From: Candidatus Hydrogenedentota bacterium
Lineage (GTDB): Bacteria > Hydrogenedentota > Hydrogenedentia > Hydrogenedentales > Hydrogenedentaceae
Reading direction: 5' to 3'
NCBI GenBank assembly: GCA_026415215.1
Contig: JAOAHN010000063.1
Location: 778 to 64,777, forward strand
DNA length: 64,000 nt
Shown here piece by piece: positions 18,069 through 63,195 of the stretch (its first letter is position 1; every line of letters begins with the position of its first letter). A program made the position numbers and the translations under genes. Under the pieces are notes generated by a model. The model saw only the letters and a list, made by a program, of their open reading frames with translations, was not told the DNA's origin and ran no database searches.

Positions 18069-18080
18069 TTCTCTAAAAAT

Positions 18081-25559: not shown

Positions 25560-25703
25560 CTGATATTCCTTATAATAGACACAATTTTACTGTCTTTACT
25601 CCTATAGTTTATCAACCACTTGGAAAAGATACTACTCTATTGTGTATATTTTTATAATTAAATTTGTATATTTATATAATAATGCTGGTATAAGGTTACA
25701 AAT

Positions 25704-27196: not shown

Positions 27197-27200
27197 AACC

Positions 27201-31880: not shown

Positions 31881-32023
31881 ATAGTATGAATTTTGGAAAA
31901 TGGATTATAAACTTTGAGAAATTATAACAAATAATAATCCGCCGAGATTGGAATATTATCCCGGCGGACTGGATAAGCCTTTTTTCGAAATTCTACTTTA
32001 ATGCAACACTATGGAGCAACTAC

Positions 32024-34879: not shown

Positions 34880-34966
34880 ATTTTATTCTCCTATAATCCT
34901 ACTTAAGTTTTAATCTTAGGTTTAATAGATAAAAGCACTAAATAACACAGCCACTCACATATTCTA

Positions 34967-35440: not shown

Positions 35441-35522
35441 CTTTATCCTAATTTTGTATAATTATTATAACACAAAATCTCGTAAAAGATATCGTGTACT
35501 CACTGTATTCAGAGTGTTGTTT

Positions 35523-36905: not shown

Positions 36906-36911
36906 AATACC

Positions 36912-40163
<3,252 letters not shown>

Positions 40164-40216
40164 TCAAATGATAAAATCTCTCAAGATACTCTTTATCTCC
40201 CAAAGTTAATCCTTTT

Positions 40217-40795: not shown

Positions 40796-40835
40796 ATTTA
40801 CAACTATTTATCTCTAACCCATACCGGTTCTAATT

Positions 40836-42275: not shown

Positions 42276-42309
42276 ATATTCCAAATTAGGAAAAAGGAGT
42301 AAGTGCCTT

Positions 42310-44485: not shown

Positions 44486-45496
44486 TTAAAGAATCAGATT
44501 AAAATCAATGGGCTCACATAAAGCTTTTAGGTTTTCGTGGGGCGTACCACCTGGAACCTCACATCCCGCACCTATCATAAGAGGAAACCCCACTTCCCTA
44601 TACAAATCTCTTAACTTTCCCTTTATTTCGTCAGGAGTAGAGTTCATAACCTCTCTAACTGGGTCAATATTAGTGACTAAAACTGAATCTGGGCCCAAAA
44701 TCTCTCTTGCTTCTCTTAATGGAACAAACCAATCTAAATCGTAAATATCGCAGGGGAGTTCTCTCCAGAAGTTCAACAAGTGCTTTGTATTACCACAAAT
44801 ATGGAGTCTTACAAATCCTCCAGCATCTTTAATTGCCTTCATAAGTTTATATTCGTGTGGGAAAATTAACTCGTAATAGGTTTGAGGTGATACTTGACTT
44901 GCAATAGCATCGCCAATGCCAATCGTATCTGCACCCTCCTGAAGTTGGGCAAGAGCAAACCGAATAGAAGTTTCAGTACAAAACCCCATCAGTTCAAAAG
45001 CATATTCAGGTCTAATAAGCAAATCTGTAAGAAAATCCGTAACTCCCCTTAAATCTGCAGCCTCCGCTGCAGGTCCTTCTACCCAACCCATCACAGAATA
45101 ATTTTTATTTGCTCTATTTCTCATCTCTCTTACTGCAAGAAGTCTATCCATCATCCTTTCCGCTTTATAAGGATTCGGAGGTTCCAATCTTGTAAAATCA
45201 AGATCATCCTTCAATAAAGGCTCTACACAACGAGGAACTTCATCCTCTGGAAAATATAACTCCGCTCCAAATCCTGAGGTCTCTCTAAACGGATCCGAAA
45301 TTGCACTCCACTGATCAACCCCAAAGTCCTCACTACATTTCTCATTTGCTCTAACCAACACATGATAATCGCTTACGAACTCTCTGTATTTTGCTCCTAT
45401 ATAGTGCGCTGAAAAAAACATTAGAATGGGAATTCTTGGCAAAAAATCTACAGGCTGTTTTTTTATAGTTCTCTCGTATCGCTCAAGTGAGTTCAT
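44486..45496 (-). CDS. Uroporphyrinogen decarboxylase (URO-D) family protein, UroD/MtaA-like.
   Basis: About 336 aa with URO-D-family architecture (…RIPILMFFSAHYIGAKYREF…, …GAGCEVPGGTPHENL…). Confidence 0.6.
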   Translation of the reverse strand: MNSLERYERTIKKQPVDFLPRIPILMFFSAHYIGAKYREFVSDYHVLVRANEKCSEDFGVDQWSAISDPFRETSGFGAELYFPEDEVPRCVEPLLKDDLDFTRLEPPNPYKAERMMDRLLAVREMRNRANKNYSVMGWVEGPAAEAADLRGVTDFLTDLLIRPEYAFELMGFCTETSIRFALAQLQEGADTIGIGDAIASQVSPQTYYELIFPHEYKLMKAIKDAGGFVRLHICGNTKHLLNFWRELPCDIYDLDWFVPLREAREILGPDSVLVTNIDPVREVMNSTPDEIKGKLRDLYREVGFPLMIGAGCEVPGGTPHENLKALCEPIDFNLIL

Positions 45497-45553
45497 AAAG
45501 TATTTACCTTCTCTACTCTAATGATAACCAAAACATTTAGATCAAACAAAAAA

Positions 45554-48430
45554 TTATACTCTTTGAAAATTCCCTTTATATTTATCCCTTAATCCCAATT
45601 TCTCTCTTAAAAATTTCCCAGTATACGATTCTTTAACCTTTACAATTTTCTCTGGCGGACCCACAGCAACAACATTTCCACCATCTTCTCCTCCCTCTGG
45701 ACCAAGATCGATTATCCAATCTGCAGTTCTTATAACCTCGAGATTGTGTTCAATTACAATCACAGTATTTCCGTAATCTACAAGTTGATGAAGCACTCTT
45801 AAAAGTCTGTCCACATCTACAGCATGTAGCCCTGTCGTAGGTTCATCAAGAATGTAAAGAGTGTTACCAGTGTGCCTTCTTAAAAGCTCAGTAGCAAGCT
45901 TAACCCTCTGTGCCTCCCCTCCTGAAAGGGTAGTAGCGGGCTGACCAAGTTTTATGTACCCTAAACCGACCTCATAAAGAGTGCGCAGAGGTTTAGCAAT
46001 AGAAGGGATATTCTTAAAAAAATCGAGCGCATCTTCAACTGTCATATCAAGAACATCTGCCACGCTCTTACCTTTATATAAGACTTGTAGAGTGTCCCGA
46101 TTATATCTCTTTCCTTTACAGGTTTCACACGGGATATATACATCTGGTAAAAATTGCATTTCTATTACTAAAAAACCATTACCTTCACACTCTTCACACC
46201 TTCCACCTTTAACATTAAAACTAAACCTTCCCGGTGTGTAGCCTCTTGCCCTCGCTTCAGGAGTCTTACTAAATAATTCTCTTATAGGAGTAAACACCCC
46301 CGTGTATGTAGCAGGATTAGACCTTGGAGTTCGGCCAATCGGAGACTGGTCTACATCTATTATCTTGTCTATATGCTCTAACCCTTCTATAGTTTCATAA
46401 TAAAGCTTCCTATCCGGTTTCTTCTTGTTAAGTGCGAACTGAACAGCGGGAAACAAGGTCTCATTTACTAAACTCGATTTACCAGAGCCGGATACACCTG
46501 TAACACAAATGAACAATCCCAATGGGAAAGCTACATCAATATTCTTTAGGTTATTCAAAGAGGCACCTCTTACAACAAGCCATTTGTCTTTAGGGCTACG
46601 CCTTTTGGTAGGAACATAAACTTTAAACTTCCCAGAGAGATATTGTCCCGTATACGAGTTCTCACATTTCTCAATATCAGAAGGCTTACCTTGAACAACC
46701 ACCCTACCCCCATGGATACCGGCGCCAGGCCCTAAATCTACTACATAGTCAGCGGAACGAATAGTAGTTTCGTCATGTTCGACTACTATCACGGTATTTC
46801 CCAAATCTCTCAATCTTTGCAAAGTGTTAATCAATCTTTGGGTATCTCTCGGATGTAAACCTATGCTCGGCTCATCGAGTACATATATTACTCCAACTAA
46901 TCCAGAACCTATCTGACTTGCCAATCTAATCCTCTGTGATTCACCTCCGGATAAAGTGCCCGCAGACCTATCGAGTGTAAGGTAATCTAACCCAACATTA
47001 GCGAGAAAAGTTAATCTTAATTTGATTTCTTTCAACAATCTTTCCGCAATCTTGGCTTGAAGCTCACCCAACTCTAAATTATCGAAAAAGTTTAGCAGTT
47101 CTCTAACTGACATGCTCGTTACTTCAACTATATTTTTACCTCCAATTTTTACAGCTCTTGCCTCTGGCTTTAACCTCGTCCCCTGGCACATACGACATAT
47201 CTTAGTTGTCATATACTTTTCAATCATCTCTCTTGCACGAGTCGAAGTTGTATCTCTATATCTTCTTTCTAAATTAGGTATTACCCCTTCGAAAGACTTA
47301 TAAGTCTCATATTTGCTGTTAGCCATGTTATAAGTAAAATGTATGACCTCATCTCCCGAGCCGTAGAGAATCACATCCTTTAACTCCTCAGATAAATCTT
47401 TCCAAGGGGTAAAGGGACTTTCTCCATAATGTTCACAGACCATTCTTAACATTTTCCTATACATAGAATCGAGCACAGGGCGTTGACTCCATGGCTCAAT
47501 TGCACCCTCCGCAATTGATAATTCCGGATCAGGCACTACCAAATCTGGGTCTATTTCAGTCACAGTCCCTAACCCACCGCAAGCAGGACAAGCACCGTTA
47601 GGGTTATTAAACGAAAACATTCTCGGCTCAAGTTCTTCTACGGAAATTCCACAATCTATACAAGATAGATGTTCACTGTGTATGACCTCTTTAGGATGCT
47701 GACCAGGAATCTCGTACCAAACTCTAACCAACCCTTTTCCATATTTAAGGGCAGTTTCAACTGAGTCTGTTAACCTCTTCTGAACTTCAGGCTTTATTAC
47801 CAATCGATCTACAACTACATCTACATCATGTTTCACATACCTCTCTAATTTAATATCATCTTCGACATTATAAATTGTTCCATCTACTCTAATCCTGACA
47901 AATCCAGACTTCTTTATCTCTTCGAACAACTTTGTATAATTACCTTTCCTCTGTCTAACAACAGGAGCAAGTATCTGGACCTTCGTCTGTTCAGGAAATT
48001 TCATCATTACATCCACAATTTGCTGGGGCGTTTGCGCTGTAATAACCTTCCCACATTTATAACAATGAGGAGTACCAACCCGCGCAAAAAGCAATCTCAA
48101 ATAATCATATATTTCCGTCACAGTTCCCACAGTGGACCGAGGATTTCTATGAACCGTCTTTTGCTCTATGGAAATAGCAGGACTCAACCCCTCTATAAGG
48201 TCCACATCCGGCTTTTCCATCTGCTCCAAAAATTGCCTCGCATAAGCAGAAAGACTTTCTACATATCTTCTTTGTCCTTCTGCATAAAGGGTGTCAAACG
48301 CCAAACTTGACTTACCTGAACCACTTAGGCCAGTTATAACTATTAGTTTATTTCTCGGCAGGTCTAAATTAATATTAGCTAAATTATGCTGTCTTGCTCC
48401 TCTTATCATTATGTAATTCAGTGAATCCAT
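45554..48430 (-). CDS. uvrA: Excinuclease ABC subunit A.
   Basis: IRGARQHNL start, two ABC cassettes ([10 protein letters not shown] and [10 protein letters not shown]), zinc-finger Cys clusters and about 958 aa. Confidence 0.95.
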
Positions 48431-48476
48431 AGGAAAACAAACCCTAAACCAACAACTTTAGCTCCACAAAATTTTC

Positions 48477-50411
48477 TTAAAAAGAACTTACCTCTCCCTT
48501 CTGCTCTTGATTCTCCATCGAAAATTTTCCCCCTATAAAAATATTTCCATCATTAGTTTCTAATAGCAAACTAAATTTACCATCTCCTAAAACAGTTTCT
48601 CCCTCCTGATTTACTCTCGAAAAGGAACCCGTCAGAGTATAAGTTGAATCAATTATTCCATTTACTGCTTTTGCTTTTACCTTACAATTAGGATTTGATG
48701 GAAGAATGATACTTATACCGCCACCCATACACTTTAAATCTAAATCACTCATGATATCTGATAAAAACAAAGCCTTAATTTCACCATTTTGGTTTACTAC
48801 CTTAGTACTCGCTGTTGAGTCCTCTAAATTTATTTTTGCTTCAACACCGTTAATAGTCAAGTTGCCACCTACAAATTTAGTATTCACAGACCCTTTTTTA
48901 ATATTAATATCACCTACTCCCTCCGAACCTTCAATGTAAACATTACCATTTACCATAGAAACAACATATTCACCCTTAATATTTCTAAGAGATAAATTTC
49001 CACCTTCTTGGTTAACTCTTAAATTCTTTTCCATAGATTCAAAAGTGCATTCTCCACCACCAGAAATCACATCCACACCTATAAAAGAGGGACACAATAT
49101 TTGAATCTCCACTCTCCAATCTGCAACATCAACACCTAAACCATCTAATAAGCCCCCAATTGTCAAATATAGCCTGTTATCAGTTCGATGAAAATCCCTA
49201 ACTATTTTCTCCATAACTACAGGTGCCTTCTCCGAGTCATTTAACCATACCAGACGCGAAATCTTAATAGTCACCTTATTTTGGTCTGAACCTATCAAAT
49301 GAATTCCACCTCTTTGATTATTAATAATCAAAATATCCTCTGAATTCGCAGTCTCTTCCAAAACAATCATATCTGTAAACGGTTTTGCAGTCGATACCTT
49401 TTCACTTACCCCACTATCAGCTTCGCTTCCAGACTGTATGACTATCTTAGAAAAATTTGCACTAAGGTAAAGCTCTCTCTTAGATTCAGGATTCAATAAT
49501 TCAATCTTATTAAAGTAACCTACACTCTTTTTTACCACAGGCAAATCAGAGACAAACTCTCCGCCTACCATACTGCCAGTTATACTGCTCTCCTTTCCCG
49601 CTGATAAATAATACCTTAATTCACCTCCATCCATATTTATCTGGACTTTAGGAGAAGAAATCTCCCTTAAAACTACATCACACATCGAAGAATTTAAATT
49701 TATATCTCCTCCCATATCAACTATTTCTGCTCTTGTCCTAGCTAAGTTTAATACAGCATTTCCAGTTACTTTCTTAAGAGACAAAGAGAACTCTCCTTGC
49801 ATCTGAATACTCACAGCCCCCCCTATGTTTTGAACATCAACATTTCCAAACTGACATAAAATACTCACATTCCCTAATATGTCCCGAATAGTTACATCAC
49901 CAAAAAAATTATCAACACTTATCGAAGAAAACCTCGGAACCATTAATTCGTAGTCAATTTGCAAATACTCTATGTTAGTTTCTGGTGTTTTACTCTGTAT
50001 ATGAAAGTTATTCTCTTCTTTCGAAGTTGATAATTCAAAGCTGTTAACTAATTGATCAACAACATCTTTAGAATTTCCACCTGCGGTGATAGTTGCTTCT
50101 ACTCTAATGATTGGGTTATTCCAACTTTTTATATTAACCTTACCAAACTCATTCTTTATAGACAAGATGACTGTATCTGTCTCTATTTCAAATTGTTCAC
50201 TGATTTTGCGAGAAGAAGAAAAAGGTAGTTTTTCATCCCGCATTAAATTAGAACGAATCAACAAATCCGAAAATGAACCTAATTGCTGGATACCCCTTAT
50301 AATCCTTTCAAACCCAGACTTTAAATATTGTGAGCGTTGTTCCTGCGCGAACAAATTTGTACAAAAAAACATAAAAAACAGTAGAAATATCTGTTTTCTG
50401 CTTAAATGCAT
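48477..50411 (-). CDS. Secreted protein with DUF4097-like (putative adhesin, beta-rich) repeats.
   Basis: Signal peptide. Reiterated GDVTIRDILGNVSI…GNVDVQNIGGAVSIQ-type strands. Confidence 0.45.
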   Translation of the reverse strand: MHLSRKQIFLLFFMFFCTNLFAQEQRSQYLKSGFERIIRGIQQLGSFSDLLIRSNLMRDEKLPFSSSRKISEQFEIETDTVILSIKNEFGKVNIKSWNNPIIRVEATITAGGNSKDVVDQLVNSFELSTSKEENNFHIQSKTPETNIEYLQIDYELMVPRFSSISVDNFFGDVTIRDILGNVSILCQFGNVDVQNIGGAVSIQMQGEFSLSLKKVTGNAVLNLARTRAEIVDMGGDINLNSSMCDVVLREISSPKVQINMDGGELRYYLSAGKESSITGSMVGGEFVSDLPVVKKSVGYFNKIELLNPESKRELYLSANFSKIVIQSGSEADSGVSEKVSTAKPFTDMIVLEETANSEDILIINNQRGGIHLIGSDQNKVTIKISRLVWLNDSEKAPVVMEKIVRDFHRTDNRLYLTIGGLLDGLGVDVADWRVEIQILCPSFIGVDVISGGGECTFESMEKNLRVNQEGGNLSLRNIKGEYVVSMVNGNVYIEGSEGVGDINIKKGSVNTKFVGGNLTINGVEAKINLEDSTASTKVVNQNGEIKALFLSDIMSDLDLKCMGGGISIILPSNPNCKVKAKAVNGIIDSTYTLTGSFSRVNQEGETVLGDGKFSLLLETNDGNIFIGGKFSMENQEQKGEVSSF

Positions 50412-50473
50412 ATTATATCCCCATTAATTTATATACTCTATTTCTTCTCTCTTACCTAACGATTAATTTCATA

Positions 50474-51898
50474 CTATTTCTTTATTCTCAATTTAGAGAG
50501 CATTTCCCTTAAAATTTTTAATACTCTATTCCCATCTACACGCTCTCCAAACTTTTCCATATCAAACTCACCAGTAAAAATTTTCTCTACCATCTTTCTT
50601 ACTTCTTTCTCTACTAATGCTCTTGCAGGGATATTTGCAAGCATACCATAAGTAGGCGCCTTAGAATATCTCCCTATATCTCGGTTTCCTCTAACTTTTT
50701 CTACAGAATCTCTTAAATCCTCAATATACCTCTCAACAATATCTTTATGAGTAGGGTTAATCATTTGATGTATACTCGGCGGTTTCTGTTGTCTATCAAT
50801 ATGCCATCCTTTTTCTTCCATCACATCAGCCACAGCGTAAATATTCAAGTTTTTATCTGTACTATAGTATGCAAACACAGGACCACACGGATTGCCAACT
50901 ATATCCAAACCCGGTATACTTCTAATCCCTTCCTGAAATCTCTCAACAGTATCAATAAGAAGCTTACTATTATCCATATATCCTTTCTCTCCAATCGACA
51001 TAAGCGTAGCCCATGCAGAGGCAATAGCACCTCCAGGTCTCGTCCCTAACATTCCAGGACTCATATATATACCACCGGGCCAATTCACATACACAAATAT
51101 TTGCTCTCTCATGAACTCTATCGACTTATACAAAATCACAGAAGCACCTTTTGCAGAATAACCATATTTGTGGATATCCACCGAAATAGAAGTCACTCCA
51201 GGAACTCGAAAATCAAATAATGGAACTTCTTTTCCTAACTTTTCCCACCAAGGTAAGACCATCCCTCCTATACATGCATCCACATGAAGGAGAAGGTTAT
51301 ATCTTTGAGCAAGTTTTCCTAACTCAATTATAGGATCCACTGCACCACAAGGGTAATTAGGTGCAGAACCAACCACTGCAACAGTCTTTGATGTAATCCG
51401 CCTTTCTACAGCATCTACATCTACCCTCCCTTCAGAATCTACAGGAGCATGTACTATTTTTATATCAAAGTATTCTCCCGCTTTTTCAAAGGCTACATGA
51501 GCTGTATCGGGCACTATGACCTCTGGGATAAAGAACCTATCTCTTCTCCTATTTCTAATATAATCTCTGTAGGTCTTCATCGCTAAAAGTATACTTTCAG
51601 TCCCACCAGATGTCATACAACCTACAACACCATCATCTCCATTCAATAAATTAGCAACCATCCTAACAACCTCAGACTCAAATTTTTTTAGACTCTGAAA
51701 AGCAAAAGGATTTAATCCATTTTCATGAAAGAAACTCGTATATACTTCCTTAAGAAACTCTGTATGTTCATCAGATAGATGAAATACAAGGCTAAAAATC
51801 TTACCCTCTTCCCATCGTGCATCTCTCTCCCTTGCTTTACTCATCTCAATCATAATTTCATCTCGAGACATCCCAATCTCTGGAATGGTCATACTCAT
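50474..51898 (-). CDS. PLP-dependent group II decarboxylase, sphingosine-1-phosphate-lyase-like / glutamate-decarboxylase family.
   Basis: The PLP-lysine block SISVDIHKYGYSAKGASVILYK parallels S1P-lyase SxSADTHKYGxAPKGSSV. CMTSGGTESILLA also matches the family. Confidence 0.7.
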   Translation of the reverse strand: MSMTIPEIGMSRDEIMIEMSKARERDARWEEGKIFSLVFHLSDEHTEFLKEVYTSFFHENGLNPFAFQSLKKFESEVVRMVANLLNGDDGVVGCMTSGGTESILLAMKTYRDYIRNRRRDRFFIPEVIVPDTAHVAFEKAGEYFDIKIVHAPVDSEGRVDVDAVERRITSKTVAVVGSAPNYPCGAVDPIIELGKLAQRYNLLLHVDACIGGMVLPWWEKLGKEVPLFDFRVPGVTSISVDIHKYGYSAKGASVILYKSIEFMREQIFVYVNWPGGIYMSPGMLGTRPGGAIASAWATLMSIGEKGYMDNSKLLIDTVERFQEGIRSIPGLDIVGNPCGPVFAYYSTDKNLNIYAVADVMEEKGWHIDRQQKPPSIHQMINPTHKDIVERYIEDLRDSVEKVRGNRDIGRYSKAPTYGMLANIPARALVEKEVRKMVEKIFTGEFDMEKFGERVDGNRVLKILREMLSKLRIKK

Positions 51899-51931
51899 TG
51901 TTTACCTCCTATCTTGCATCTCTTTAAATAC

Positions 51932-52771
51932 TCAAAATACAAGTACATTAAAAGCAATTATAATCATCTTAGATAATATGTAAACTAAGTCAACAAAGAT
52001 TGAAAATACAAACAATGCAACTACTGCATTCCTCAAATTTTGAAAAGTTTCATTCCATCCATTTGATAAAGGGAGTGAGGTGTATAAAGAAAATACAACT
52101 GAATTGAATCCCAAAATAAATGTCAATATTTTTGCAAAGTTCTTAGCCTCTTGTAACCATGCCATATCTTTAGGATGACTACCTACATAAATAACATATA
52201 TATAGTAAATTCCCTCGACAATTGAATGAAAACCAACATAAATCAATGCGGTAATTATCAAAGTAATAACTGACCGCATAATTATTGCAGGCCAGCTAAT
52301 CCTAATGAATTTCTGGATACCTTGCGAATTTTTGTACATAATCAAAAATAGAAAAAAGTATAAGAGCAAACCAATCCCCAAAAGTAAACCTAATTGCACA
52401 AAAAATACTCTCACCCAAAGCGGGTTAACTTTTAATTTCTTCCCAATTCCTCCACACACACCCAACCAAACTGACTGAGAAGGAGAAAGGGCCAATCTAT
52501 CAGAATTATCCAACTCATATAAGATACACTCTGACATCTTTTCTGCGGTTCCAAACCTAACCTCTAAAAGTTTTCTTACTTCTGAATCTCCTAATTGAAT
52601 TCCCTTCTCTTTCGTCAAAAACTCATAGATTTCTTCTCTTTTTTTAACTAATTCATTGCTGATATCTTGTAGGTCAAAGCCTTGCCTCCCCTCCAACTTT
52701 TTTTGTAATAAATTTTTTACTTCTCCAATGTAATCATCAACTATTCTGGAGTGTGATTTGGTTGTGCTCAT
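51932..52771 (-). CDS. PspC-domain membrane protein.
   Basis: RLALSPSQSVWLGVCGGIGKKLKVNPLWVRVFFVQLGLL matches the PspC domain, followed by extra TM helices. Confidence 0.55.
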   Translation of the reverse strand: MSTTKSHSRIVDDYIGEVKNLLQKKLEGRQGFDLQDISNELVKKREEIYEFLTKEKGIQLGDSEVRKLLEVRFGTAEKMSECILYELDNSDRLALSPSQSVWLGVCGGIGKKLKVNPLWVRVFFVQLGLLLGIGLLLYFFLFLIMYKNSQGIQKFIRISWPAIIMRSVITLIITALIYVGFHSIVEGIYYIYVIYVGSHPKDMAWLQEAKNFAKILTFILGFNSVVFSLYTSLPLSNGWNETFQNLRNAVVALFVFSIFVDLVYILSKMIIIAFNVLVF

Positions 52772-52939
52772 TTAATATTTAGTCATTAGTTTTAGAATAT
52801 TTTACTACAAAACTCTATTTTGTAATAGGAATAGAGAATACAATAAAAAACATTAATTTGTGAAATATAACTACAAGTTTAATATAATTCTTGCGGAAAA
52901 TTAACTACCGTAGAGAATTGAAATTCAGGGAACTGTATT

Positions 52940-54640
52940 ATGAACCTAATAACTAAGATCAAACTTTTATGGCACATAGCTAAGTGGAGAGCCACCTGGG
53001 ATTGGAGAAATACAAAAAAAGCAGTGAGAGTTCCGGGAAATCCAAAATTTATGAGTGCAAGGGAAGCGGTATCGCTTATTAAGGACGGATCTGTAATAGG
53101 AACCTCTGGATTAGCAGGGAATCAGCGATCTTCTCTAATCTGGTGGGCGATCAGAGAAATGTTTGAAGAAACTGGTCACCCAAGAGACTTGACAATAGTT
53201 AGCGTAGGAGGACAAGGCGGGAGGGGTAAAATACCTGGAACATTAGAAGAACTCGGCTTACCAGGTTTATGCACGAGACTGTTTACAGGCCACACGGAAA
53301 CATTTAAATCCCTACTAAAACTTGCTGACCAAGGACTCTGTGAAATTCAATGCATACCGCAAGGTACTCTTACTCTCATATTAAAAGCGATGGGAGAAGA
53401 AGGGAAAAACTATGTAATTAATAAGACAGGCATAGGAACTTTTATTGACCCCAGAGTAGGAAGAGGGACTCCAGTAGTAAATGGAGGTAAAAAACAGTGG
53501 GTAGAGGTGGTAGATGGGTGCCTAAAATATGAAGTGCCTTGGCTTGATGTAGCTGTGTTTAACGCACCAGCAGCCGATAGAGAAGGAAATATTTATGTGA
53601 AAAACTGTGCTATGATCGGGGAGAGTTATGAGATTACCAAAGCGGTAAAGCGTAGAGGAGGTGTTGTCATCGCTAATGTGGGATTGTTAGTAGATAAAGG
53701 ATATGACGAGATATTCCTACCTGCAAGTGATATAGATGCAATAGTTGTTTGGAAGGGCACAGAGCAATCAGGTGGGATACAACATAGAAAATATTGGGAC
53801 TTCTTTACTCTCAATAGCAAGACTCCAATAGAAGAAGGTATAGCAAGAGTTAGATTTGTCAATCGTGTATTGAAAATTACACCAGTTAGGACACCTGCAG
53901 ACGATGTATTGGCAAGGCTTGCTGCAAAAATTTTCGTCCAGAACTCTAAAAAAGGTGACTATATCGACATCGGAGTTGGTCTCCCAGAAGAAGCTTCGAG
54001 ATTACTATTCGAAAGTGGAGTACTAAAATATGTTACCCTTATGACAGAGAGTGGTGTTATAGGTGGACTACCCGCCCCAGGTATATTCTTTGGGGCTTCG
54101 ATTAATCCATCAGAAATAGTTTCCTCTGCTACAATCTTTACTCGAATGTACCAAAGACTCGATGGTGTCATCCTTGGTGCATTACAAGTAGACAGTGAGG
54201 GTAATGTTAATGTGTCAAAGCGCGGAGAGGGTGCTATAAATTATGTGGGTCCGGGAGGATTCATAGATCTAACAACCGCAGCCAAAACAGTCTACTTTTG
54301 CGTAGCTTGGGGTAACGAAGCCAAGATAAAAGTAGTAAATGGGAAGGTCAAAGTAATCGACCCTGGAAAACCAAAATTTATTGAAAAAGTAGATGAAATA
54401 ACATTCTCTGGGAAGGAAGCTCTAAAAAATGGCAAGAAAGTCTTCTATATTACTCATATAGGTGCATTTATGCTTACTGAGAGAGGAATGGAGATTAGAT
54501 GGATAATGCCCGGAGTAGACCTCCAAAAAGATATACTCGAAGTTACTCCTATGAGAGTAATCGTTCCCGAAAACGGACCAGAAGTAGTAGAAGAATCTAT
54601 AATTACAGGTAACAACTTCAAACTGACATTGGAAAGTTAA
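52940..54640 (+). CDS. Acyl-CoA:acetate / propionate CoA-transferase (Pct/YdiF family, fused A/B subunits).
   Basis: GIGTFIDPRVGRG and the C-terminal ITFSGKEALKNGKKVFYITHIGAFMLTERGMEIRWIMPGVDLQKDILE match propionate CoA-transferase ITFSGK…YITERAVF…IAPGVDLQKDIL. Confidence 0.8.
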   Translation: MNLITKIKLLWHIAKWRATWDWRNTKKAVRVPGNPKFMSAREAVSLIKDGSVIGTSGLAGNQRSSLIWWAIREMFEETGHPRDLTIVSVGGQGGRGKIPGTLEELGLPGLCTRLFTGHTETFKSLLKLADQGLCEIQCIPQGTLTLILKAMGEEGKNYVINKTGIGTFIDPRVGRGTPVVNGGKKQWVEVVDGCLKYEVPWLDVAVFNAPAADREGNIYVKNCAMIGESYEITKAVKRRGGVVIANVGLLVDKGYDEIFLPASDIDAIVVWKGTEQSGGIQHRKYWDFFTLNSKTPIEEGIARVRFVNRVLKITPVRTPADDVLARLAAKIFVQNSKKGDYIDIGVGLPEEASRLLFESGVLKYVTLMTESGVIGGLPAPGIFFGASINPSEIVSSATIFTRMYQRLDGVILGALQVDSEGNVNVSKRGEGAINYVGPGGFIDLTTAAKTVYFCVAWGNEAKIKVVNGKVKVIDPGKPKFIEKVDEITFSGKEALKNGKKVFYITHIGAFMLTERGMEIRWIMPGVDLQKDILEVTPMRVIVPENGPEVVEESIITGNNFKLTLES

Positions 54641-54643
54641 AAA

Positions 54644-55375
54644 TTAGCGTCCACTTACAAATGATTCTATCTCTGAAAATCTTTCTATAAACTCATACCA
54701 ACTTTGAAATATAAAGTCTGCACGAGTATCATTTCTATATTTGTCATTAACACCAACAAATAATCCTCCGTACCCACCTACTTCTTTAATACCTTTAATG
54801 TCAGTAGGCTCAAGATCCCCAATATGAAGTATGTTCTCAGGCCTCACATTTAACTTCTCTGCAGTCAACTCAAACATTATCGGACGAGGTTTTGAGACTC
54901 CAACTTCATCAGAATAACAACAGAACGAAAAATATTGAGAAAATTCATATTCATCAAGCAACTTCTGCAAGGACCTCCCCGGAGATATTCCCGTATCAGA
55001 AATCAAAGCCACGGGAAAATTTTCATAAGCAAGTTTTACAGCATCAATAGCACCTTCTATAGGTTCAGGCTGATATACCAAAATTGCAGTAGCAAATTCC
55101 TCTACTAAAAAGTCAAACTGCGATTTACTGAACTCAACTCCGAGATGAAGCGAAACAATATCTACCGCATCTTCAGGGTTTAGAGTTCTCTGTTCCTCTA
55201 TATGGCATCGGGCAAACTCTTTAGCAGCGATTGAAAGTGCTTCTTTAGCTTCTTCGAGAGAAACTGCCCCTCTCAAAATATTCGATATAGCTTTAGCCCG
55301 ATATTCCTGCCTCTCTTTCCCAAAAGCATCTTTAAATAAAGTTCCCCAAAAGTCAAATGTTATAGCCTTTATCAT
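54644..55375 (-). CDS. HAD-superfamily hydrolase.
   Basis: N-terminal motif I ITFDFWGTL and a C-terminal HIGD motif. Confidence 0.6.
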   Translation of the reverse strand: MIKAITFDFWGTLFKDAFGKERQEYRAKAISNILRGAVSLEEAKEALSIAAKEFARCHIEEQRTLNPEDAVDIVSLHLGVEFSKSQFDFLVEEFATAILVYQPEPIEGAIDAVKLAYENFPVALISDTGISPGRSLQKLLDEYEFSQYFSFCCYSDEVGVSKPRPIMFELTAEKLNVRPENILHIGDLEPTDIKGIKEVGGYGGLFVGVNDKYRNDTRADFIFQSWYEFIERFSEIESFVSGR

Positions 55376-55418
55376 ACCGCATACCCATCTACTAACTAAT
55401 TCATTTACAGAAAACTAA

Positions 55419-56819
55419 TTACTCACTCACTCGAATTATCTCACTAATCTGCTCCCTTACTGCACTCACCATTTCATCTTCCACAGTAGGAGCCCATCCT
55501 ACAGGAGAAGCATACTGCTCTTGAATAACCTTTGCCTGATACAGGCCTAATCTGACTATCTCCCTTGTAGGAATATACAAATTATGCTCACCCATATATC
55601 CAAACACCATAATGGGATAATTATATCTAAAAGCATCCTTTATCCGCATACCTATAGGAGCACATACCTCCCCCTGAAGCGCGACTAATATGAAATTTCC
55701 AATTTTAGCAACAATAGATTCTTCATATCTACAGGGATATTCCCTACCATCTGGATTTTCTTCAATTAAAAAGCCATCGTCAGTGCAAATTTTGTCTGAT
55801 GACTTATTGGGGAAAGGAATTCCTTCACGGTAGTGTTTCAAAAGTGACCTTATCCAGTTTGAACTTCTCCTATGGTCGGGATAGGGCACGAAGCCTATGT
55901 CCATTGGATGAAACAAAGCCAGTTTTTCAGCTTGTTCTCTTGGCATAGGCTTGGCAAGGGAAAGCGATACGACTTTAAATGAACTCGATATCTTACCCTC
56001 TATGGGTGTTTTTTTCTCGTTTGCAACCCTAATAACCTCTCTGGATAATTCTTCAGCATACTTTATTACTACCGCTTCATCAGCATGCATGAAACTCTTT
56101 GTAAACTGATTCCCCCCACATGCATCAGCATACATAGCAATACATCCATCAAATGCTTTTTCAACAAAATCCATTGCATAGCCGGGATGCCCAGGATGGA
56201 TTACATTATCTTTACCTGCTAACTGAAGAGGATGTGTAGGATGATTAAATAAAATTGCGTATACTTTGCCAGCGCTGTCCACAACTTTTAACACCTGGAC
56301 CTCATAGTCTACTGGAGCATTACCAACACTCAGTAAGTGATAAACATATCCATTTCCAAATTCTAAATGAACTGGACCTGTGAGATTTTCCAATGCTCTT
56401 TTCACTAAATCGAATATCTTATTAGCCAGCCATCTACCATACTCAAAATTTTCAGGAACTATTTGAATAGGTGCACAGTGGTTATGAGTAGCAAGAGGTA
56501 TGAAGTACTCATGCGAAATGCCCAACTCGTGTTTTAGGCGAGACCTTAATATAGGTGTAGCTACATCCAAACAGTTCAAATCGTATGTCACTATCACAAG
56601 TTTAGAATTCCCATCATCAAGCACAAGAACCCTTGCATATAAATCCTTCGCAACTTCAACCATTCTCTCACCAAATACACCCACAGGTTTGTTATCTAAA
56701 CTTGGAGGAGTAATTATATCCTTTGCAGTCCCTACCCGAAGAAAAGCTTGTCCTACACCACAGAACAAAACTGAAAAAGATAAACACAAAGTAAAAACTC
56801 TTAATTTAAAAAAGTTCAT
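55419..56819 (-). CDS. Secreted neutral/alkaline ceramidase-like hydrolase (tentative).
   Basis: Signal peptide. VGTAKDIITPP…VGVFGERM…ARVLVLDDGNSKLVIVTYDL and PLATHNHCAP parallel the ceramidase N-terminal ADITgP…mGYa…RAfvl…vfvsaD and THTHSGP blocks. This is memory-based. Confidence 0.4.
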   Translation of the reverse strand: MNFFKLRVFTLCLSFSVLFCGVGQAFLRVGTAKDIITPPSLDNKPVGVFGERMVEVAKDLYARVLVLDDGNSKLVIVTYDLNCLDVATPILRSRLKHELGISHEYFIPLATHNHCAPIQIVPENFEYGRWLANKIFDLVKRALENLTGPVHLEFGNGYVYHLLSVGNAPVDYEVQVLKVVDSAGKVYAILFNHPTHPLQLAGKDNVIHPGHPGYAMDFVEKAFDGCIAMYADACGGNQFTKSFMHADEAVVIKYAEELSREVIRVANEKKTPIEGKISSSFKVVSLSLAKPMPREQAEKLALFHPMDIGFVPYPDHRRSSNWIRSLLKHYREGIPFPNKSSDKICTDDGFLIEENPDGREYPCRYEESIVAKIGNFILVALQGEVCAPIGMRIKDAFRYNYPIMVFGYMGEHNLYIPTREIVRLGLYQAKVIQEQYASPVGWAPTVEDEMVSAVREQISEIIRVSE

Positions 56820-56929
56820 AAAGGCTCTCCTTCTACGCCCAAAAGAAAAATGGAATATTATTAAATAGTATTTTTATTATAATAAAAAGAATTCGGGACT
56901 TAATCACCAAATTTTGGAGTAAATTATAA

Positions 56930-58465
56930 ATGCCAGAAAAAAAGGAAAAAATTCTGGTAGTAGATGATGAACTAATAATCAGAGAGCTACTAACAGACCT
57001 ATTAACGGAAGAGGGTTTCGAAGTCATAACTGCTCCTGATGGAGAAGATGCATTACAGATAATAAAAGAGGACAAAGAAATTTCCATAATCTTTACTGAT
57101 ATATTGATGCACAGGATGGATGGTATCCAACTTATCCACAAGGCAAAAGAGATAAACCCAAACTTTGTTCCTATAATAATGACAGGCTATGCAACATTAG
57201 AGACGGCGAGAGCGGCTGTTAAAGAAGGAGCCTATGACTATGTTCTAAAACCTTTCAATATATCAGAAATAAAAACCGCTGTATACAATGCAATAGAGCG
57301 TCATAGATTAATCCTCGAAAACGCCCGACTAAAGGAAATTACCGAACTATTCAAAATCAGCGAGAATATATCTTCTATCAGAGATGAGGAACAACTGCTC
57401 CGATTCATATTAAACACTGCTTTAGAATATACAGAAGCAGAAAGGGGTTCAATATTAATAGTAACTGAGGATGGAAAACACCTTAAATTAGTAGCTGGAA
57501 CGGGGATTCCACAAGAATTGATAGGAAATGTGATTCCCATGAAGCCTACCTCCATTTCCGGAATAGTAGCGTTAAATATGGAACCGTTTTTTGTTGAGGA
57601 CATTGAATCCCAGCCTGAGATAAAAGAATACATCATAGGACTGAAAAATAAATCATTTATATCCGTTCCGTTAAAAAGGAAAAAAAGTGATTTTATAACT
57701 CATCATCCTCTAATGGATAACCCTTCAGATATTATTGCGGTATTGAATGTAACTGATAAGAGGAACAATGCTCCATTTACAGAGTCAGACCTTAAAGTGT
57801 TGAGAATCATAGGCAACCACGGCGCAGTTGCGATTGAGAATGCAAGGCTAATTAGGGAAATAGAATCTGCACAGAGAGAAATCGTGTTTACCTTGGGTGA
57901 GATAGTAGAAACTCGTTCCCGAGAAACAGGAAGCCATGTGAAAAGAGTCGCGGAGTATTCGAAAGTACTCGCATCCAAAATAGGCTTATCTCCTAAAGAG
58001 GCAGAGATTTTGAGATTAGCCGCTCCTCTTCACGATGTAGGTAAAGTGGGTATCCCTGATGCTATCCTAAATAAACCAGGCTCCCTAACCCCATCTGAAT
58101 TCGAAATAATTAAGACTCACACTATCATTGGACACGATATGCTTAAGAAAACAAAGGGTGTTGTTCTCCAGTCAGCAGCAATAATTGCTCTCGAACATCA
58201 CGAAAGATATGACGGAAACGGTTATCCTCAAGGTAAAAAAGGAAAGGAAATACACATATACGGAAGAATAGTAGGAATAACTGATGTGTTCGATGCTTTA
58301 GGTGTAGATAGAATATATAAAAAAGCATGGTCGCTTGAGGAAATTAAAGACTATTTCGCAGACCAAAGAGGCAAGCAGTTTGATCCTGAACTTGTAGATA
58401 TTTTCTTTGCAAACATAGAGGAAATACTCCAGATACGCGAACGCTTCCCTGAAAAACAACAATAA
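56930..58465 (+). CDS. Response regulator REC-GAF-HD-GYP (c-di-GMP phosphodiesterase, RpfG-like).
   Basis: Canonical receiver (ILVVDDE…IFTDILMHRMDG). A central GAF domain. An HD-GYP domain with HD…HHERYDGNGYP. Confidence 0.85.
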   Translation: MPEKKEKILVVDDELIIRELLTDLLTEEGFEVITAPDGEDALQIIKEDKEISIIFTDILMHRMDGIQLIHKAKEINPNFVPIIMTGYATLETARAAVKEGAYDYVLKPFNISEIKTAVYNAIERHRLILENARLKEITELFKISENISSIRDEEQLLRFILNTALEYTEAERGSILIVTEDGKHLKLVAGTGIPQELIGNVIPMKPTSISGIVALNMEPFFVEDIESQPEIKEYIIGLKNKSFISVPLKRKKSDFITHHPLMDNPSDIIAVLNVTDKRNNAPFTESDLKVLRIIGNHGAVAIENARLIREIESAQREIVFTLGEIVETRSRETGSHVKRVAEYSKVLASKIGLSPKEAEILRLAAPLHDVGKVGIPDAILNKPGSLTPSEFEIIKTHTIIGHDMLKKTKGVVLQSAAIIALEHHERYDGNGYPQGKKGKEIHIYGRIVGITDVFDALGVDRIYKKAWSLEEIKDYFADQRGKQFDPELVDIFFANIEEILQIRERFPEKQQ

Positions 58466-58473
58466 ATAGTATA

Positions 58474-61107
58474 CTAATACTCATACGCACCTATGTCGTA
58501 ATCAGATCCGTCCCCCCGTGGAGCTGAAATTCCGTCTCTACCTCTCATGTTATTCTCAATATCGAAAATCACGGAGCCCCACTCTTCACTACTGGTATCA
58601 AATCCCGCATCCACACACGGCGAACTACTGGAAAGCCTTAAGTTGCCACCTTGAGGAAAAACAAACAGAGGGTCTACTGAAATATTGCCTACCCCCTGCT
58701 TCTCTACCTGTAGATTACAATAATAGAATTCAGGTTCTCCTCCCAACGAATATACTCCAGCACCTGAATTTTCCCAAATTATAGTATTCCCAAATCTTAA
58801 ACCTCCGTAATAATTGAACACCGCCCCACCCTGAATATTTGAAAGCAGATCAGTCATATTCCCATAAAAGGTGCAGTTCGTAACGATTATATTTTCACAA
58901 AAATCGAGGTGAAGCCCCCCTGTTCGTTCAGTCGAGTAACTGAAATCATATGACTGGTTACGGAAAACAACCGAATTTATTAACTTGCCGGAGCTTCGTG
59001 TCAGGAATCCCATACCACCGCTTGCCCGAGAATAGCCTGGATGGTCATTAGTCGAAACCGAATTATTTCTAAACTCAGAACTTTCAATTCTGAAGCTTGA
59101 ATACCACAAATAAATAGCACCACCTAATGCTCTTGCTACCGCTCCATAGTAATTTCCATTTATCCGCCCATCACCTATCCCTTCTGCGGAGCATGAGTTT
59201 AGATAAAAATAACTATTTTCCAAAGATAATGATGAATTATAAGAGTAAATTGCGCCTCCGCCCGCTGTCGCATATACATTTCCTATCGAATTTTTCCATT
59301 CACACCGAGCGTTAGCCACATTTCTCTCAAATCTACACCTGACAAAATTCGCAACGCTATCAGATACATAAACCGCACCACCATAATTGTAAACAGAGGC
59401 TGTCCCATTCAGTTCAACCCTGTTTTCAATAAAATGGCAGTCATACGCTGATAGCTTTCCGCTCAGAATAGCTATCGCCCCTCCAGCTCCTTCTGCTTTA
59501 TTCTGGAAGAATTTGCAATTTCTAACAGTCATCCTCTTTCCAGGGATGTATAATCCCCCTCCGTCCGAAGCGTCTAAGTATATACCATTAAATCGGGCAA
59601 TACCCCCCTTAATAACGAAACCATCTATCTCACAATAATTATCCCCTAATAAAACATGCCACGCTGGTTCACCTGCTCGAGATTTGCTCCCATCGATGAC
59701 TGTTACATTCGTATTAAAGTTCCTTTGGGATAAACTAATCTCATTTCCACTAAAACCACCATATAATTTAACAAGTTCTCTTAGGACAAGTGCCCCGTAG
59801 GGATTATTTCTCACTTCGTCGTAAATACCACCTGCAACCCAAACTTCTCCTCCACCTAACTCATAAGCCTTATTTATCCCCTCCTGAATTGTAGTATAAG
59901 CAGAATCCCAAGTTAATCCATCTGGTTCAACTTCTTTATTTACATTACTTTTCTTAACATGTATTCTCACGCCCTCATGTATTTCAATGTAATTCTCTCT
60001 AACTATGGTATCTGTGCCAGCAGTAGTAGTCACACTTAATCTTACGGTGTAAACTCCAGGCTGAGTATATATATGAACTGGATCTCTCTGAACACTAAAA
60101 GAACCATCCCCAAAATTCCAAAGCCACTGGGGATCTGTTCCGTTTCCTAACCTACTTTCATCGGTAAACTCCACTTCCGTACCTACTAGAGTCCTGGTTG
60201 GCGATGCGGAAAAATTTGCTTTAGGGGGATAAGGCAAAGCACTATATATCCTAATCCAACCTGCCAATATGCTCAAAGGATACAAAATCCCCTGAGGGTA
60301 TGTGGTTGATAATATATTTTCACTATACAAAGAGTATATATCTCCGAAGTCTACTTCCTCAGATATGTGAAATCTAATAGCCATAAGAAGCCCTGAGGAC
60401 ATTCCAGTTGTAGAGGTACCAGAAATAACAACTCTCAACCTCCCAGGTACTATCTGGGAAACTGTTAAACTCCTACCTGTATTAAATATGACAAGCCCAG
60501 GAATAGACTCTACATAATTTAGTTTTCTATGGTTGTAGAGTAAATCAAACTGAATAGAATCGAGGAAAACATCTTTTGTATCTAATGTAAACGGGACAGA
60601 CACATCAGAATTAGGAACTGCATCTTTTCTATCAATAACCACTCTTGCATATTGATATACTTCCCCCTCTCCCTCAGGTGAGCCTTCCAATTCTCCTTCT
60701 TCATTATTAGGGGGGCATAGAATAGGTCTGAAGCCATCTTCAGTCCCTGAGTATGGCTCGTAACCACAAGAATTATAAAATTGTATTAGTCTCAAAATCT
60801 CATTAAGAGTAATACGCCACTTATTATTTTCCTCAAAATCACTGTCATGAGGTTCACAACTCTGATCACCCGGCCCGGGGTTATACCCATCTTCCCCATT
60901 GGGGTCACAATGATAACTCTTTACATTATAGAATTGAATTACTCTAAGAAGTTCAGATAAATTTATTTTCCCATCTCTATCTTTATCAGCCGAATGATAT
61001 TCGGTTTGGTCTGTATATCCATAAATACTAATTACTATAAAAAAAATAAAAACAAACAATATACACTTTTTTCCTCTACTACTCATTTTGTTTTCCTTTA
61101 TCAGCAT
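58474..61107 (-). CDS. Secreted protein with an N-terminal dockerin/EF-hand twin module, a PKD domain and a right-handed parallel beta-helix (pectate-lyase fold).
   Basis: Signal/TM. DKDRDGKINLSELLRVIQFYN … NKWRITLNEILRLIQFYNSCGY. PKD WNFGDGSF…HIYTQPGVYTVRLSV. PbH1-like repeats (NCKFFQNKAEGAGGAIAI, GGAVYVSDSVANFVRCRFERN, GGAIYSYNSSLSLENSYF). Confidence 0.7.
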   Translation of the reverse strand: MLIKENKMSSRGKKCILFVFIFFIVISIYGYTDQTEYHSADKDRDGKINLSELLRVIQFYNVKSYHCDPNGEDGYNPGPGDQSCEPHDSDFEENNKWRITLNEILRLIQFYNSCGYEPYSGTEDGFRPILCPPNNEEGELEGSPEGEGEVYQYARVVIDRKDAVPNSDVSVPFTLDTKDVFLDSIQFDLLYNHRKLNYVESIPGLVIFNTGRSLTVSQIVPGRLRVVISGTSTTGMSSGLLMAIRFHISEEVDFGDIYSLYSENILSTTYPQGILYPLSILAGWIRIYSALPYPPKANFSASPTRTLVGTEVEFTDESRLGNGTDPQWLWNFGDGSFSVQRDPVHIYTQPGVYTVRLSVTTTAGTDTIVRENYIEIHEGVRIHVKKSNVNKEVEPDGLTWDSAYTTIQEGINKAYELGGGEVWVAGGIYDEVRNNPYGALVLRELVKLYGGFSGNEISLSQRNFNTNVTVIDGSKSRAGEPAWHVLLGDNYCEIDGFVIKGGIARFNGIYLDASDGGGLYIPGKRMTVRNCKFFQNKAEGAGGAIAILSGKLSAYDCHFIENRVELNGTASVYNYGGAVYVSDSVANFVRCRFERNVANARCEWKNSIGNVYATAGGGAIYSYNSSLSLENSYFYLNSCSAEGIGDGRINGNYYGAVARALGGAIYLWYSSFRIESSEFRNNSVSTNDHPGYSRASGGMGFLTRSSGKLINSVVFRNQSYDFSYSTERTGGLHLDFCENIIVTNCTFYGNMTDLLSNIQGGAVFNYYGGLRFGNTIIWENSGAGVYSLGGEPEFYYCNLQVEKQGVGNISVDPLFVFPQGGNLRLSSSSPCVDAGFDTSSEEWGSVIFDIENNMRGRDGISAPRGDGSDYDIGAYEY

Positions 61108-61110
61108 CTC

Positions 61111-63117: not shown

Positions 63118-63195
63118 AATTTACCTCCTAAATATGCTGGTTATCTAATTATACCCTATAAACACCTATTAAAGGTTATGTAGACTAAATTAATA

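Follow-up and report, generated by a model that had tools for sequence, protein, structure and literature searches.

A 64 kb stretch of a Candidatus Hydrogenedentes metagenome-assembled genome (MAG), hereafter the window, encodes a lyase-like enzyme dependent on pyridoxal 5'-phosphate (PLP) and, 3.5 kb away and in a separate operon, a ceramidase-like hydrolase of 466 aa. The pair had been read in a preliminary description of the locus as a sign that the organism catabolizes sphingolipids. A sphingolipid-breakdown pathway is not supported by our analysis. The best explanation, which we consider probable, is that these are two functionally independent genes of known superfamilies, with the chemistry proposed below for each. 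The PLP enzyme is placed by its sequence in the sphingosine-1-phosphate (S1P) lyase (SPL; EC 4.1.2.27) branch of its family and not in the glutamate decarboxylase (GAD) branch, and the 466-aa protein is truly, though very remotely, homologous to the catalytic domain of neutral ceramidases. Neither protein is of a new kind; the NxLNP lyase clade and the short ceramidase-fold family to which they belong are uncharacterized variants of known families. This explanation draws on family placement, active-site residues, operon layout, and unconserved linkage, from which we infer chemistry, cellular location, and substrates.

Organization of the locus

Five open reading frames (ORFs) named in the preliminary description were confirmed at their coordinates, with the PspC, CoA-transferase, and HAD genes lying between the two focal genes. 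The genes of the locus, in order along the window, are as follows.

48477..50411, minus strand: DUF4097 / LiaG-LiaX-like protein, predicted to be secreted; 62 bp downstream of the lyase-like gene and followed by uvrA
50474..51898, minus strand: PLP enzyme of the S1P-lyase branch, predicted to be cytoplasmic, 474 aa (Pfam Pyridoxal_deC, 64.9 bits)
51932..52771, minus strand: PspC-domain membrane protein, 279 aa (Pfam PspC, 49.9 bits); 33 bp upstream of the lyase-like gene
52940..54640, plus strand: fused family-I CoA-transferase, 566 aa (Pfam CoA_trans)
54644..55375, minus strand: HAD-superfamily hydrolase, predicted to be cytoplasmic, 243 aa (Pfam Hydrolase, 68.7 bits)
55419..56819, minus strand: ceramidase-like single-domain Zn-amidohydrolase-like protein, predicted to be secreted, 466 aa (weak Pfam Ceramidase_alk match)
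56930..58465, plus strand: response regulator with receiver, GAF, and HD-GYP domains (Pfam Response_reg, GAF_2, HD_5)

Identical copies of the two focal proteins are recorded from an 88.5-kb contig of a Candidatus Hydrogenedentes MAG, and homologues number in the hundreds for the ceramidase-like protein and in the thousands for the PLP enzyme; both ORFs are therefore real genes and not chance reading frames. By coordinates, they fall into different transcription units. The 466-aa gene is followed by the HAD gene on the minus strand, and the shared strand and 43-bp gap indicate that these two are probably co-transcribed. The CoA-transferase gene stands alone on the plus strand, convergent with the HAD gene (3 bp) and divergent from the PspC gene (168 bp). 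The third unit, again on the minus strand, runs from PspC through the PLP enzyme and the DUF4097 protein to uvrA, with gaps of 33, 62, and 46 bp. Since the opposite-strand CoA-transferase gene lies in between, the PLP enzyme gene and the 466-aa gene are not co-transcribed. Scans of the window for sigma-70 promoters (30 promoter-like sites versus 32.5 expected) and for terminators (1 terminator-like site versus 6.2 expected) carried no information on operon boundaries.

Conservation of the gene neighborhood

Linkage was surveyed from both genes. For the hydrolase-centered survey, 83 loci were examined, each with at most 10 kb of flanking sequence per side. Eight of these are from the close Hydrogenedens clade (at least 62% identity), and the other 75 are distant loci from Planctomycetota, Acidobacteriota, Gemmatimonadota, Bacteroidota, other Hydrogenedentota, and further groups. 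Five of the eight close-clade loci and none of the 75 distant ones have a lyase gene no more than 10 kb from the ceramidase-like gene; the close-clade loci L005 and L077 have no lyase gene nearby. In the lyase-centered survey, which took in 83 loci (939 kb of metagenome and genome sequence), a ceramidase-like gene is found near the lyase-clade gene at a single locus, itself in the close clade, and at none of the other 82. The HAD gene adjoins the ceramidase-like gene only in the eight close-clade loci. The synteny block of the close clade also holds uvrA and genes for a PKD protein and a response regulator, and because the block includes such unrelated genes, the proximity of the two focal genes reflects recent common ancestry and not selection. 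The two genes are thus likely independent, being neighbors only through lineage-specific (genus-level) synteny.

The PLP enzyme is a member of the S1P-lyase branch

In phmmer searches of PDB, the best match of the PLP enzyme is the S1P lyase of Symbiobacterium thermophilum (StSPL, 3mad; 398 bits, E 4e-118), and the other S1P lyases found are those of human (SGPL1, 342 bits), Leishmania and yeast (Dpl1p; ~323 bits), Burkholderia (310 bits), and Legionella (217 bits). The archaeal tyrosine/aspartate decarboxylase MfnA (136 bits), plant and bacterial GADs (65 to 75 bits), and Escherichia coli GadB (41 bits) belong to the same Pfam family, Pyridoxal_deC, but their pairwise scores are far lower. 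The PLP enzyme had been described as closer to S1P lyase than to GadB, and this holds (398 versus 41 bits). A GAD-type or MfnA-type decarboxylase was rejected on family placement, with 41 to 136 bits versus 310 to 398 bits for StSPL and the human, yeast, and Burkholderia SPLs. The Pfam match (PF00282, 64.9 bits versus a cut-off of 27) is to the group II decarboxylase family of fold-type I, and the only NCBIfam match is to the MfnA decarboxylase model, full length at 252.8 bits and under its cut-off of 299.4 bits. Homologues are labeled "aspartate aminotransferase family protein" or "sphinganine-1-phosphate aldolase" in databases.

The PLP enzyme is 44.6% identical to StSPL (PDB 3MAD/3MAU) and 40.2% identical to human SGPL1 (PDB 4Q6R/8AYF) over ~420 residues, and StSPL and the human enzyme share 46.1% identity. 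The Burkholderia enzymes that have been validated as bacterial S1P lyases are ~43% to 44% identical to StSPL (PMC5234717). Upstream extension of the ORF is impossible, and its start corresponds to StSPL residue ~67. The protein is predicted to be soluble and to have the same fold as StSPL, but it lacks the first ~65 residues of that enzyme, and it also lacks the transmembrane anchor of human SGPL1 and other eukaryotic SPLs. No hydrophobic N-terminal stretch is present in either the PLP enzyme or the HAD protein.

A remodeled head-group pocket

Residues were mapped by alignment to StSPL, and their frequencies were taken from the 120 nearest homologues of the PLP enzyme. The following segments are discussed.

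51704..51793, minus strand: altered phosphate pocket, SLVFH (L37, F39) and ENGLNPF (N60, N63), from the StSPL alignment
51143..51178, minus strand: PLP-lysine block DIHKYGYSAKGA, residues 241-252, with H243, K244, and K250; coordinates verified by translation
51029..51049, minus strand: pocket residue T286 (= StSPL S353), from the StSPL alignment

In SPL structures, PLP is contacted by K311, G168, T169, H310, S353', D274, and H201 (StSPL numbering), and the phosphate or phosphoethanolamine that mimics the substrate is contacted by Y105, N126', H129', S353', A103, and K317 (reviewed in PMC10243590). The PLP and catalytic set of StSPL (K311, K317, D274, H201, H310, G168/T169, and C276) is entirely present in the PLP enzyme. 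K244 corresponds to K311, the Schiff-base lysine, and K250 to K317, and G99, T100, H134, D207, C209, H243, K244, and K250 are invariant in all 120 homologues. The tyrosine of the APxYGM motif is kept as well (Y417, StSPL Y482), a residue that we take to be important.

The phosphate pocket is altered. A103, Y105, H129, and S353 of StSPL are replaced by L37, F39, N63, and T286, and of Y105, N126, H129, S353, and A103 only N126 is kept (N60). Three of these replacements are general among the 120 homologues, which have L at the A103 position in 118 cases, N at the H129 position in 117, and T at the S353 position in all 120. The Y105 position is Y in 74 and F in 46, the PLP enzyme being among the latter. 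At these positions, human SGPL1 keeps the Y, N, H, and S of StSPL and has T in place of A103. StSPL and human SGPL1 therefore both read Y / NPLHP / GSRPG, whereas the clade of the PLP enzyme reads SLV[YF] / N[GA]LNP / GTRPG. The enzyme is thus an SPL-branch member with a remodeled head-group pocket, and this is a trait of a large bacterial clade.

By homology, the PLP enzyme would form an external aldimine through K244, and its reaction would most likely be an SPL-type C-alpha/C-beta (retro-aldol) cleavage, with an amino compound bearing an anionic, phosphate-like head group as substrate. We put the chance that it cleaves long-chain base (LCB) phosphates in vitro at about even. Given the remodeled pocket (L37, F39, N63, and T286), its physiological substrate need not be S1P.

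Genomic company of the lyase clade

The only recurrent partner of the lyase clade is a gene for a DUF819 membrane protein. Of the 62 loci with sufficient flanking sequence, 29 have it immediately upstream in the same orientation. In seven loci, the lyase-clade gene adjoins a gene for a TauE/SafE exporter (e.g., L121:11422-12177). Examples of the DUF819 gene, from among loci L094-L172 and others, are L131:8782-9960(+) and L091:7112-7966(+). DUF819 proteins are members of the CPA/AT transporter superfamily, whose substrates are ions, amino acids, and other charged compounds (PMC8396727). The pairing suggests a transporter-enzyme couple for a small charged substrate; since such pairing is typical for enzymes acting on small soluble charged substrates, it weakens the assumption of an LCB-phosphate substrate for the clade. 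No sphingolipid gene is among the recurrent neighbors in the 83 lyase-clade loci, and three further distant lyase loci with Pfam-annotated neighbors have unrelated contexts.

These observations raise the possibility, which we hold to be somewhat unlikely, that the lyase-like protein is something other than a sphingoid-base lyase. It would instead decarboxylate or cleave some small, soluble amino compound with an anionic group (a phospho- or sulfo-amino acid or amino alcohol, for instance), and in most of the clade an adjacent secondary transporter would bring this substrate in or carry it away. The DUF819 and TauE/SafE neighbors are consistent with such a substrate, as are the clade signature, which is unlike StSPL and human SPL, and the spread of homologues through phyla not known for sphingolipids, under generic database names. 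The NCBIfam match to MfnA points the same way, though it is under its cut-off. However, the pairwise scores are much nearer to those of proven S1P lyases than to those of MfnA or GAD, and K250 (K317) and Y417 (Y482) are kept, the weight of the latter again being presumed. DUF819 is also missing from the window and from the flanks of the seven F-type loci, and the members of the clade are uncharacterized.

A second alternative concerns the immediate neighbors. The PspC, lyase-like, and DUF4097/LiaG-LiaX-like genes form an envelope-stress-like trio (48477..52771, minus strand) that is kept in the close Hydrogenedens clade only. They could represent an envelope-stress or membrane-remodeling operon that, for example, tunes amino-lipid or phosphoethanolamine pools, although we regard this as very unlikely. 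All three genes are on one strand, separated by 33 and 62 bp; L001, L002, L006, L007, and L093 preserve the order PspC, lyase, DUF4097; and PspC and LiaG/LiaX-type proteins belong, by their family names, to envelope-stress systems. Against this, PspC or DUF4097 is found in only 1 of the 83 lyase-clade loci and in none beyond the Hydrogenedens clade. The product of 48477..50411 matches the NCBIfam LiaX (32 bits) and LiaG (20.9 bits) models far under their cut-offs, and the promoter and terminator scans were uninformative. An orthologue of this product has a faint precomputed DUF4097 match.

Another context is seen in L092:4771-10114 (Burkholderia gladioli plasmid bgla_1p), where serC and a polyketide synthase gene flank an SPL-family homologue 35% identical to the PLP enzyme. 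This homologue has Ala at the H129 position, and its context is one of natural-product genes, not catabolic.

Taking the PLP enzyme as an SPL-branch lyase with a distinct head-group pocket, the existence of a large bacterial clade of this type, frequently partnered with DUF819, is a warning against annotating S1P lyases by similarity alone.

The 466-aa protein is a distant homologue of neutral ceramidases

The Pfam Ceramidase_alk model (PF04734) matches the 466-aa protein at 24.3 bits (E 1.5e-5), below its gathering score of 32.1 bits, and covers residues 169-226 only (58 residues). The protein has no NCBIfam match and no second Pfam domain. That many proteins match just part of PF04734 has been noted previously (PMC4443539). 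A phmmer comparison with 2zws gave E 0.59, and a search of PDB sequences with a profile of the ceramidase-like family returned nothing relevant. Because these sequence and profile searches of PDB were empty, homology was established by a fold search and by profile-profile comparison. An AlphaFold2 model of the protein, built with 30 homologues, has a predicted local distance difference test (pLDDT) score of 91.5, and Foldseek searches with this model returned neutral ceramidases only (2zxc, E 4.5e-26; 4wgk, E 1.8e-23). In hhalign, the family aligned with canonical neutral ceramidases, represented by five bacterial ceramidases from annotated plasmids including Pseudomonas aeruginosa CerN, at 97.9% probability (E 4e-13) over 397 columns. 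Identity to neutral ceramidases is 16% to 18%.

A broader set of sequences connects the two groups. HMMER searches with the family profile gave 87 hits at E<=1e-30, 2,174 at E 1e-10, and 6,910 at E 1e-3, and the tight ceramidase-like family amounts to approximately one full-length 50%-identity cluster inside this much larger set. Sampled members of the larger set, comprising short single-domain proteins and several fusions, pass the Pfam ceramidase cut-off at 47 to 113 bits. In profile-profile comparisons, the intermediate set matches the canonical ceramidases at 100% probability (E 1.3e-39) and the 466-aa family at 100% probability over the full length (E 1.6e-70). The ceramidase-like reading of the preliminary description, which had cited N-terminal blocks, therefore stands for the fold and for homology of the catalytic domain and fails at the Pfam ceramidase cut-off.

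The 466-aa protein has 623 homologues at E 1e-3 or better, and the 120 best of these are all at least 51% identical to it. A chance or decayed ORF was rejected on these 623 homologues and on the invariant residues of the site. The family spans Hydrogenedentota, Planctomycetota, Acidobacteriota, Gemmatimonadota, and Bacteroidota with identities of at least 45%, and its members are labeled "hypothetical protein" or "neutral ceramidase" in databases. Literature searches on neutral ceramidase in Planctomycetes, sphingolipid in Hydrogenedentes, and DUF7133 returned nothing useful.

The signal peptide proposed earlier is consistent with a basic N-terminus followed by a hydrophobic stretch (residues 8-22, mean Kyte-Doolittle 2.31). 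The N-terminal helix (residues 3-18) has low pLDDT in the AlphaFold2 model, and across the family the N-terminus is variable and the mature start, AGTAKxxITP, is conserved. The signal peptide and the predicted active-site segments, the latter located by profile-profile alignments, are as follows (P. aeruginosa equivalents in brackets).

56742..56819, minus strand: predicted signal peptide MNFFKLRVFTLCLSFSVLFCGVGQA, followed by F, with K5/R7 and a hydrophobic stretch; putative cleavage between GQA and F
56466..56495, minus strand: LATHNHCAPI, with H112 (= mature H97) and H114 (= H99)
56223..56246, minus strand: H196 (= H204)
55644..55679, minus strand: E384 (= E411)
55530..55601, minus strand: Y415 (= Y448) and Y427 (= Y460)

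Predicted active site and departures from known ceramidases

In the P. aeruginosa ceramidase, we take H97, H204, E411, and Y448 to be the Zn ligands, H99 the general base, and Y460 and R160 the residues acting on the transition state (2ZWS, 4WGK). Sites were mapped by profile-profile alignments both directly and through the intermediate set, and the register of H204 was checked by counting. H112, H114, H196, E384, Y415, and Y427 are invariant in a 30-sequence alignment of the family. Y427 falls at Y460 through the intermediate alignment, where GGYE stands opposite GLYQ. The direct hhalign pairing of Y427 with Y479 was rejected, as the intermediate superfamily alignments place Y427 at Y460. Arg160, in the NRS/NRR motif, faces a deletion or a non-Arg position in the 466-aa family, with no invariant equivalent there; an Arg of the family-specific insert (R318, R324, or R359) could act in its place.

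Neutral ceramidases (CerN, 2ZWS/2ZXC; ASAH2, 4WGK) have the motif GDxSPN, whereas the 466-aa protein has GGNQF. They are ~670 aa long and carry a C-terminal Ig-like domain (Ceramidse_alk_C, PF17048) that the 466-aa protein lacks; it ends ~40 residues past the catalytic domain in a single helix, and the canonical bacterial enzymes have ~625 to 675 aa. Invariant motifs specific to the family are DLNCLDVATP, NWIR, CTDD, and CRYEE, and they include an inserted segment of ~21 residues. The uncharacterized short bacterial Ceramidase_alk proteins of 430 to 480 aa (e.g., P0275, P0283, and P0293) have the same length and single-domain form as the 466-aa protein. Unlike the 466-aa family, which has diverged at these points, proteins of this type pass the Pfam threshold (47 to 61 bits) and keep the canonical NRR Arg, GD..P, and GGYE. 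A phospholipase C or sphingomyelinase gene lies alongside canonical ceramidase genes (phospholipase C in the case of P. aeruginosa CerN) but not alongside the 466-aa gene.

Most likely, the 466-aa protein is a functional Zn amidohydrolase of the periplasm. It would most likely hydrolyze an N-acyl amide bond in the periplasm, with Zn held by H112, H196, E384, and Y415, H114 serving as general base, and Y427 stabilizing the transition state. At 16% to 18% identity, the substrate is not readable from homology, and since the ceramidase Arg and the C-terminal domain are lacking and a family-specific insert is present, ceramide is only one candidate. We consider it improbable that ceramide is the natural substrate. 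The family represents a short secreted form of the neutral-ceramidase fold that is tightly conserved and widespread, with the metal site kept and one catalytic Arg and the C-terminal domain lost. Biochemical characterization would be worthwhile for both this family and the NxLNP lyase clade, though neither would surprise a specialist.

Neighbors and fusions of the ceramidase-like family

No neighbor is kept in more than 12 of the 75 distant ceramidase-like loci. The commonest is a gene for a DUF7133-HEAT-cytochrome c protein of ~1000 aa, which lies 0 to 72 bp upstream on the same strand in ten distant loci (including L034, L040, L042, L046, and L053). Tandem paralogues of the ceramidase-like gene are present in approximately ten (including L025, L033, L039, L043, L045, L048, L052, and L060). 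Sporadic neighbors include genes for DegT aminotransferases and DUF1501 proteins, identified by Pfam, and for GH2-like proteins, sulfatase-like proteins, and oxidoreductases, named by eye from sequence. Ceramidase_alk-type domains are fused to DUF7133-HEAT-cytochrome c in P0299 (1417 aa) and P0339 (947 aa), to a 3-keto-disaccharide hydrolase domain (PF06439) in P0322 (654 aa), and to Peptidase_S9 in P0287 (721 aa). The associations of the superfamily thus run toward periplasmic oxidative or glycan metabolism and not toward sphingolipids, but as they come from paralogous subfamilies they are only a lead.

One possibility suggested by these contexts is that the ceramidase-like protein serves in periplasmic glycan oxidation or degradation, where it would cleave an amide that is not a lipid, for instance that of an N-acylated or N-acetylated sugar or of other glycan-derived material. 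We think this rather unlikely. The same-strand DUF7133-HEAT-cytochrome c gene, the four fusions, and the sporadic GH2-like, sulfatase-like, oxidoreductase, DUF1501, and DegT neighbors all lean in this direction. Yet the low recurrence of every neighbor tells against it, the fusions sit outside the tight family of the 466-aa protein, and none of these partners is adjacent to the gene in the window. It is unlikely to a slightly greater degree that the 466-aa family is a conserved cross-phylum neutral-ceramidase fold repurposed to a non-sphingolipid amide and working with the DUF7133-HEAT-cytochrome c proteins, of dehydrogenase type, in the periplasm. If this were the case, a fold that is known only in ceramidases would have a new activity.

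A sphingolipid pathway is not supported

The two proteins could, in principle, belong to a route of sphingolipid scavenging. The periplasmic ceramidase-like enzyme would free an LCB from ceramide of host, prey, or detritus. After import of this base and its phosphorylation by a kinase whose gene lies elsewhere, cleavage by the cytoplasmic lyase would yield a fatty aldehyde and phosphoethanolamine, and the CoA-transferase and HAD proteins would process the products. We judge this route to be very unlikely. It has in its favor that both enzyme families fit, that an exported hydrolase and a cytoplasmic lyase are in compatible compartments, and that the order ceramidase-like, HAD, CoA-transferase, PspC, lyase is kept in five to six related MAG contigs. 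In addition, the PLP enzyme shows the level of similarity to StSPL that is seen for validated bacterial S1P lyases (PMC5234717).

These points are offset by the gene neighborhoods. The two genes are in separate transcription units, the synteny block shared with uvrA, the PKD protein, and unrelated genes indicates recent ancestry, and the lyase is already missing near the hydrolase in L005 and L077, with no linkage in the 75 and 82 distant loci. No conserved sphingolipid gene occurs in either the hydrolase or the lyase neighborhood set. A Pfam scan of 39 of the 40 ORFs of at least 100 aa in the window (36912..40124 was left out) found no class-II aminotransferase of the serine palmitoyltransferase (SPT) type, no DAGK_cat (sphingosine/LCB) kinase, and no ceramide synthase.

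The enzymes themselves add to this, with Y105 and H129 of the phosphate pocket replaced in the lyase and a hydrolase below the Pfam ceramidase threshold that lacks both Arg160 and the C-terminal domain. The proposal that the organism catabolizes sphingolipids thus finds no support, given separate transcription, synteny from shared ancestry that is limited to one clade, an obligatory kinase step that is not in view, and family associations that point elsewhere. The two family assignments behind that proposal largely stand. Of the two results that the preliminary description named as refuting its reading, one was obtained, as the hydrolase fails the ceramidase hidden Markov model (24.3 versus 32.1 bits), and the other was not, as the PLP enzyme is not GAD-like (398 versus 74 bits). 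Cleavage of LCB phosphates as the physiological role of the lyase, coupled to the hydrolase, is in our view highly improbable. Had the pathway held, it would have represented a sphingolipid catabolic route in a candidate-phylum scavenger.

Several considerations weigh against treating the two genes as independent or their substrates as other than sphingolipids. An unconserved neighborhood is compatible with a shared pathway, as the genes for catabolic steps that take place in separate compartments often lie apart. A kinase and SPT were searched for in 64 kb of the genome, and either may lie elsewhere. N63 and T286 could still hydrogen-bond a phosphate, and with ~45% identity to a proven S1P cleaver and the catalytic lysines kept, true S1P-lyase activity is quite possible. 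Finally, there is no DUF819 gene in the window or adjoining the seven F-type loci, the association being with Y-type members, so the transporter hint is only indirect for this PLP enzyme.

Other features of the window

The CoA-transferase (52940..54640) matches an NCBIfam FadX-like model at 192 bits, far under its cut-off of 750 bits, and the NCBIfam subfamily matches of the HAD protein (54644..55375) are all sub-threshold. Motif I at the HAD N-terminus (55316..55375, minus strand) reads FDFWGTL, so that the usual DxD has Trp where its second Asp would be; non-phosphatase or haloacid-dehalogenase-like members of the superfamily show the same. Given this Asp-to-Trp change, a phosphatase role, for example on phosphoethanolamine, is not to be assumed. 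The response regulator gene diverges from the ceramidase-like gene with 110 bp between them, a position kept in the close clade only.

Three large proteins with EF-hand-type calcium-binding motifs are encoded on the minus strand within the conserved synteny block (32024..34879, 58474..61107, and 61111..63117). The product of 58474..61107 has a basic and then hydrophobic start, and its orthologues match PKD and beta-helix models. Two segments of ~1.2 kb each (8286..9522 and 43261..44485) have no ORF of at least 100 aa, no tRNA, and no Rfam match at the gathering threshold. GC skew is negative in 29 of the 32 2-kb windows across 1..64000 (cumulative -5.18). The G+C content is ~34% to 41% over the whole window, with no compositional island around the two focal genes.

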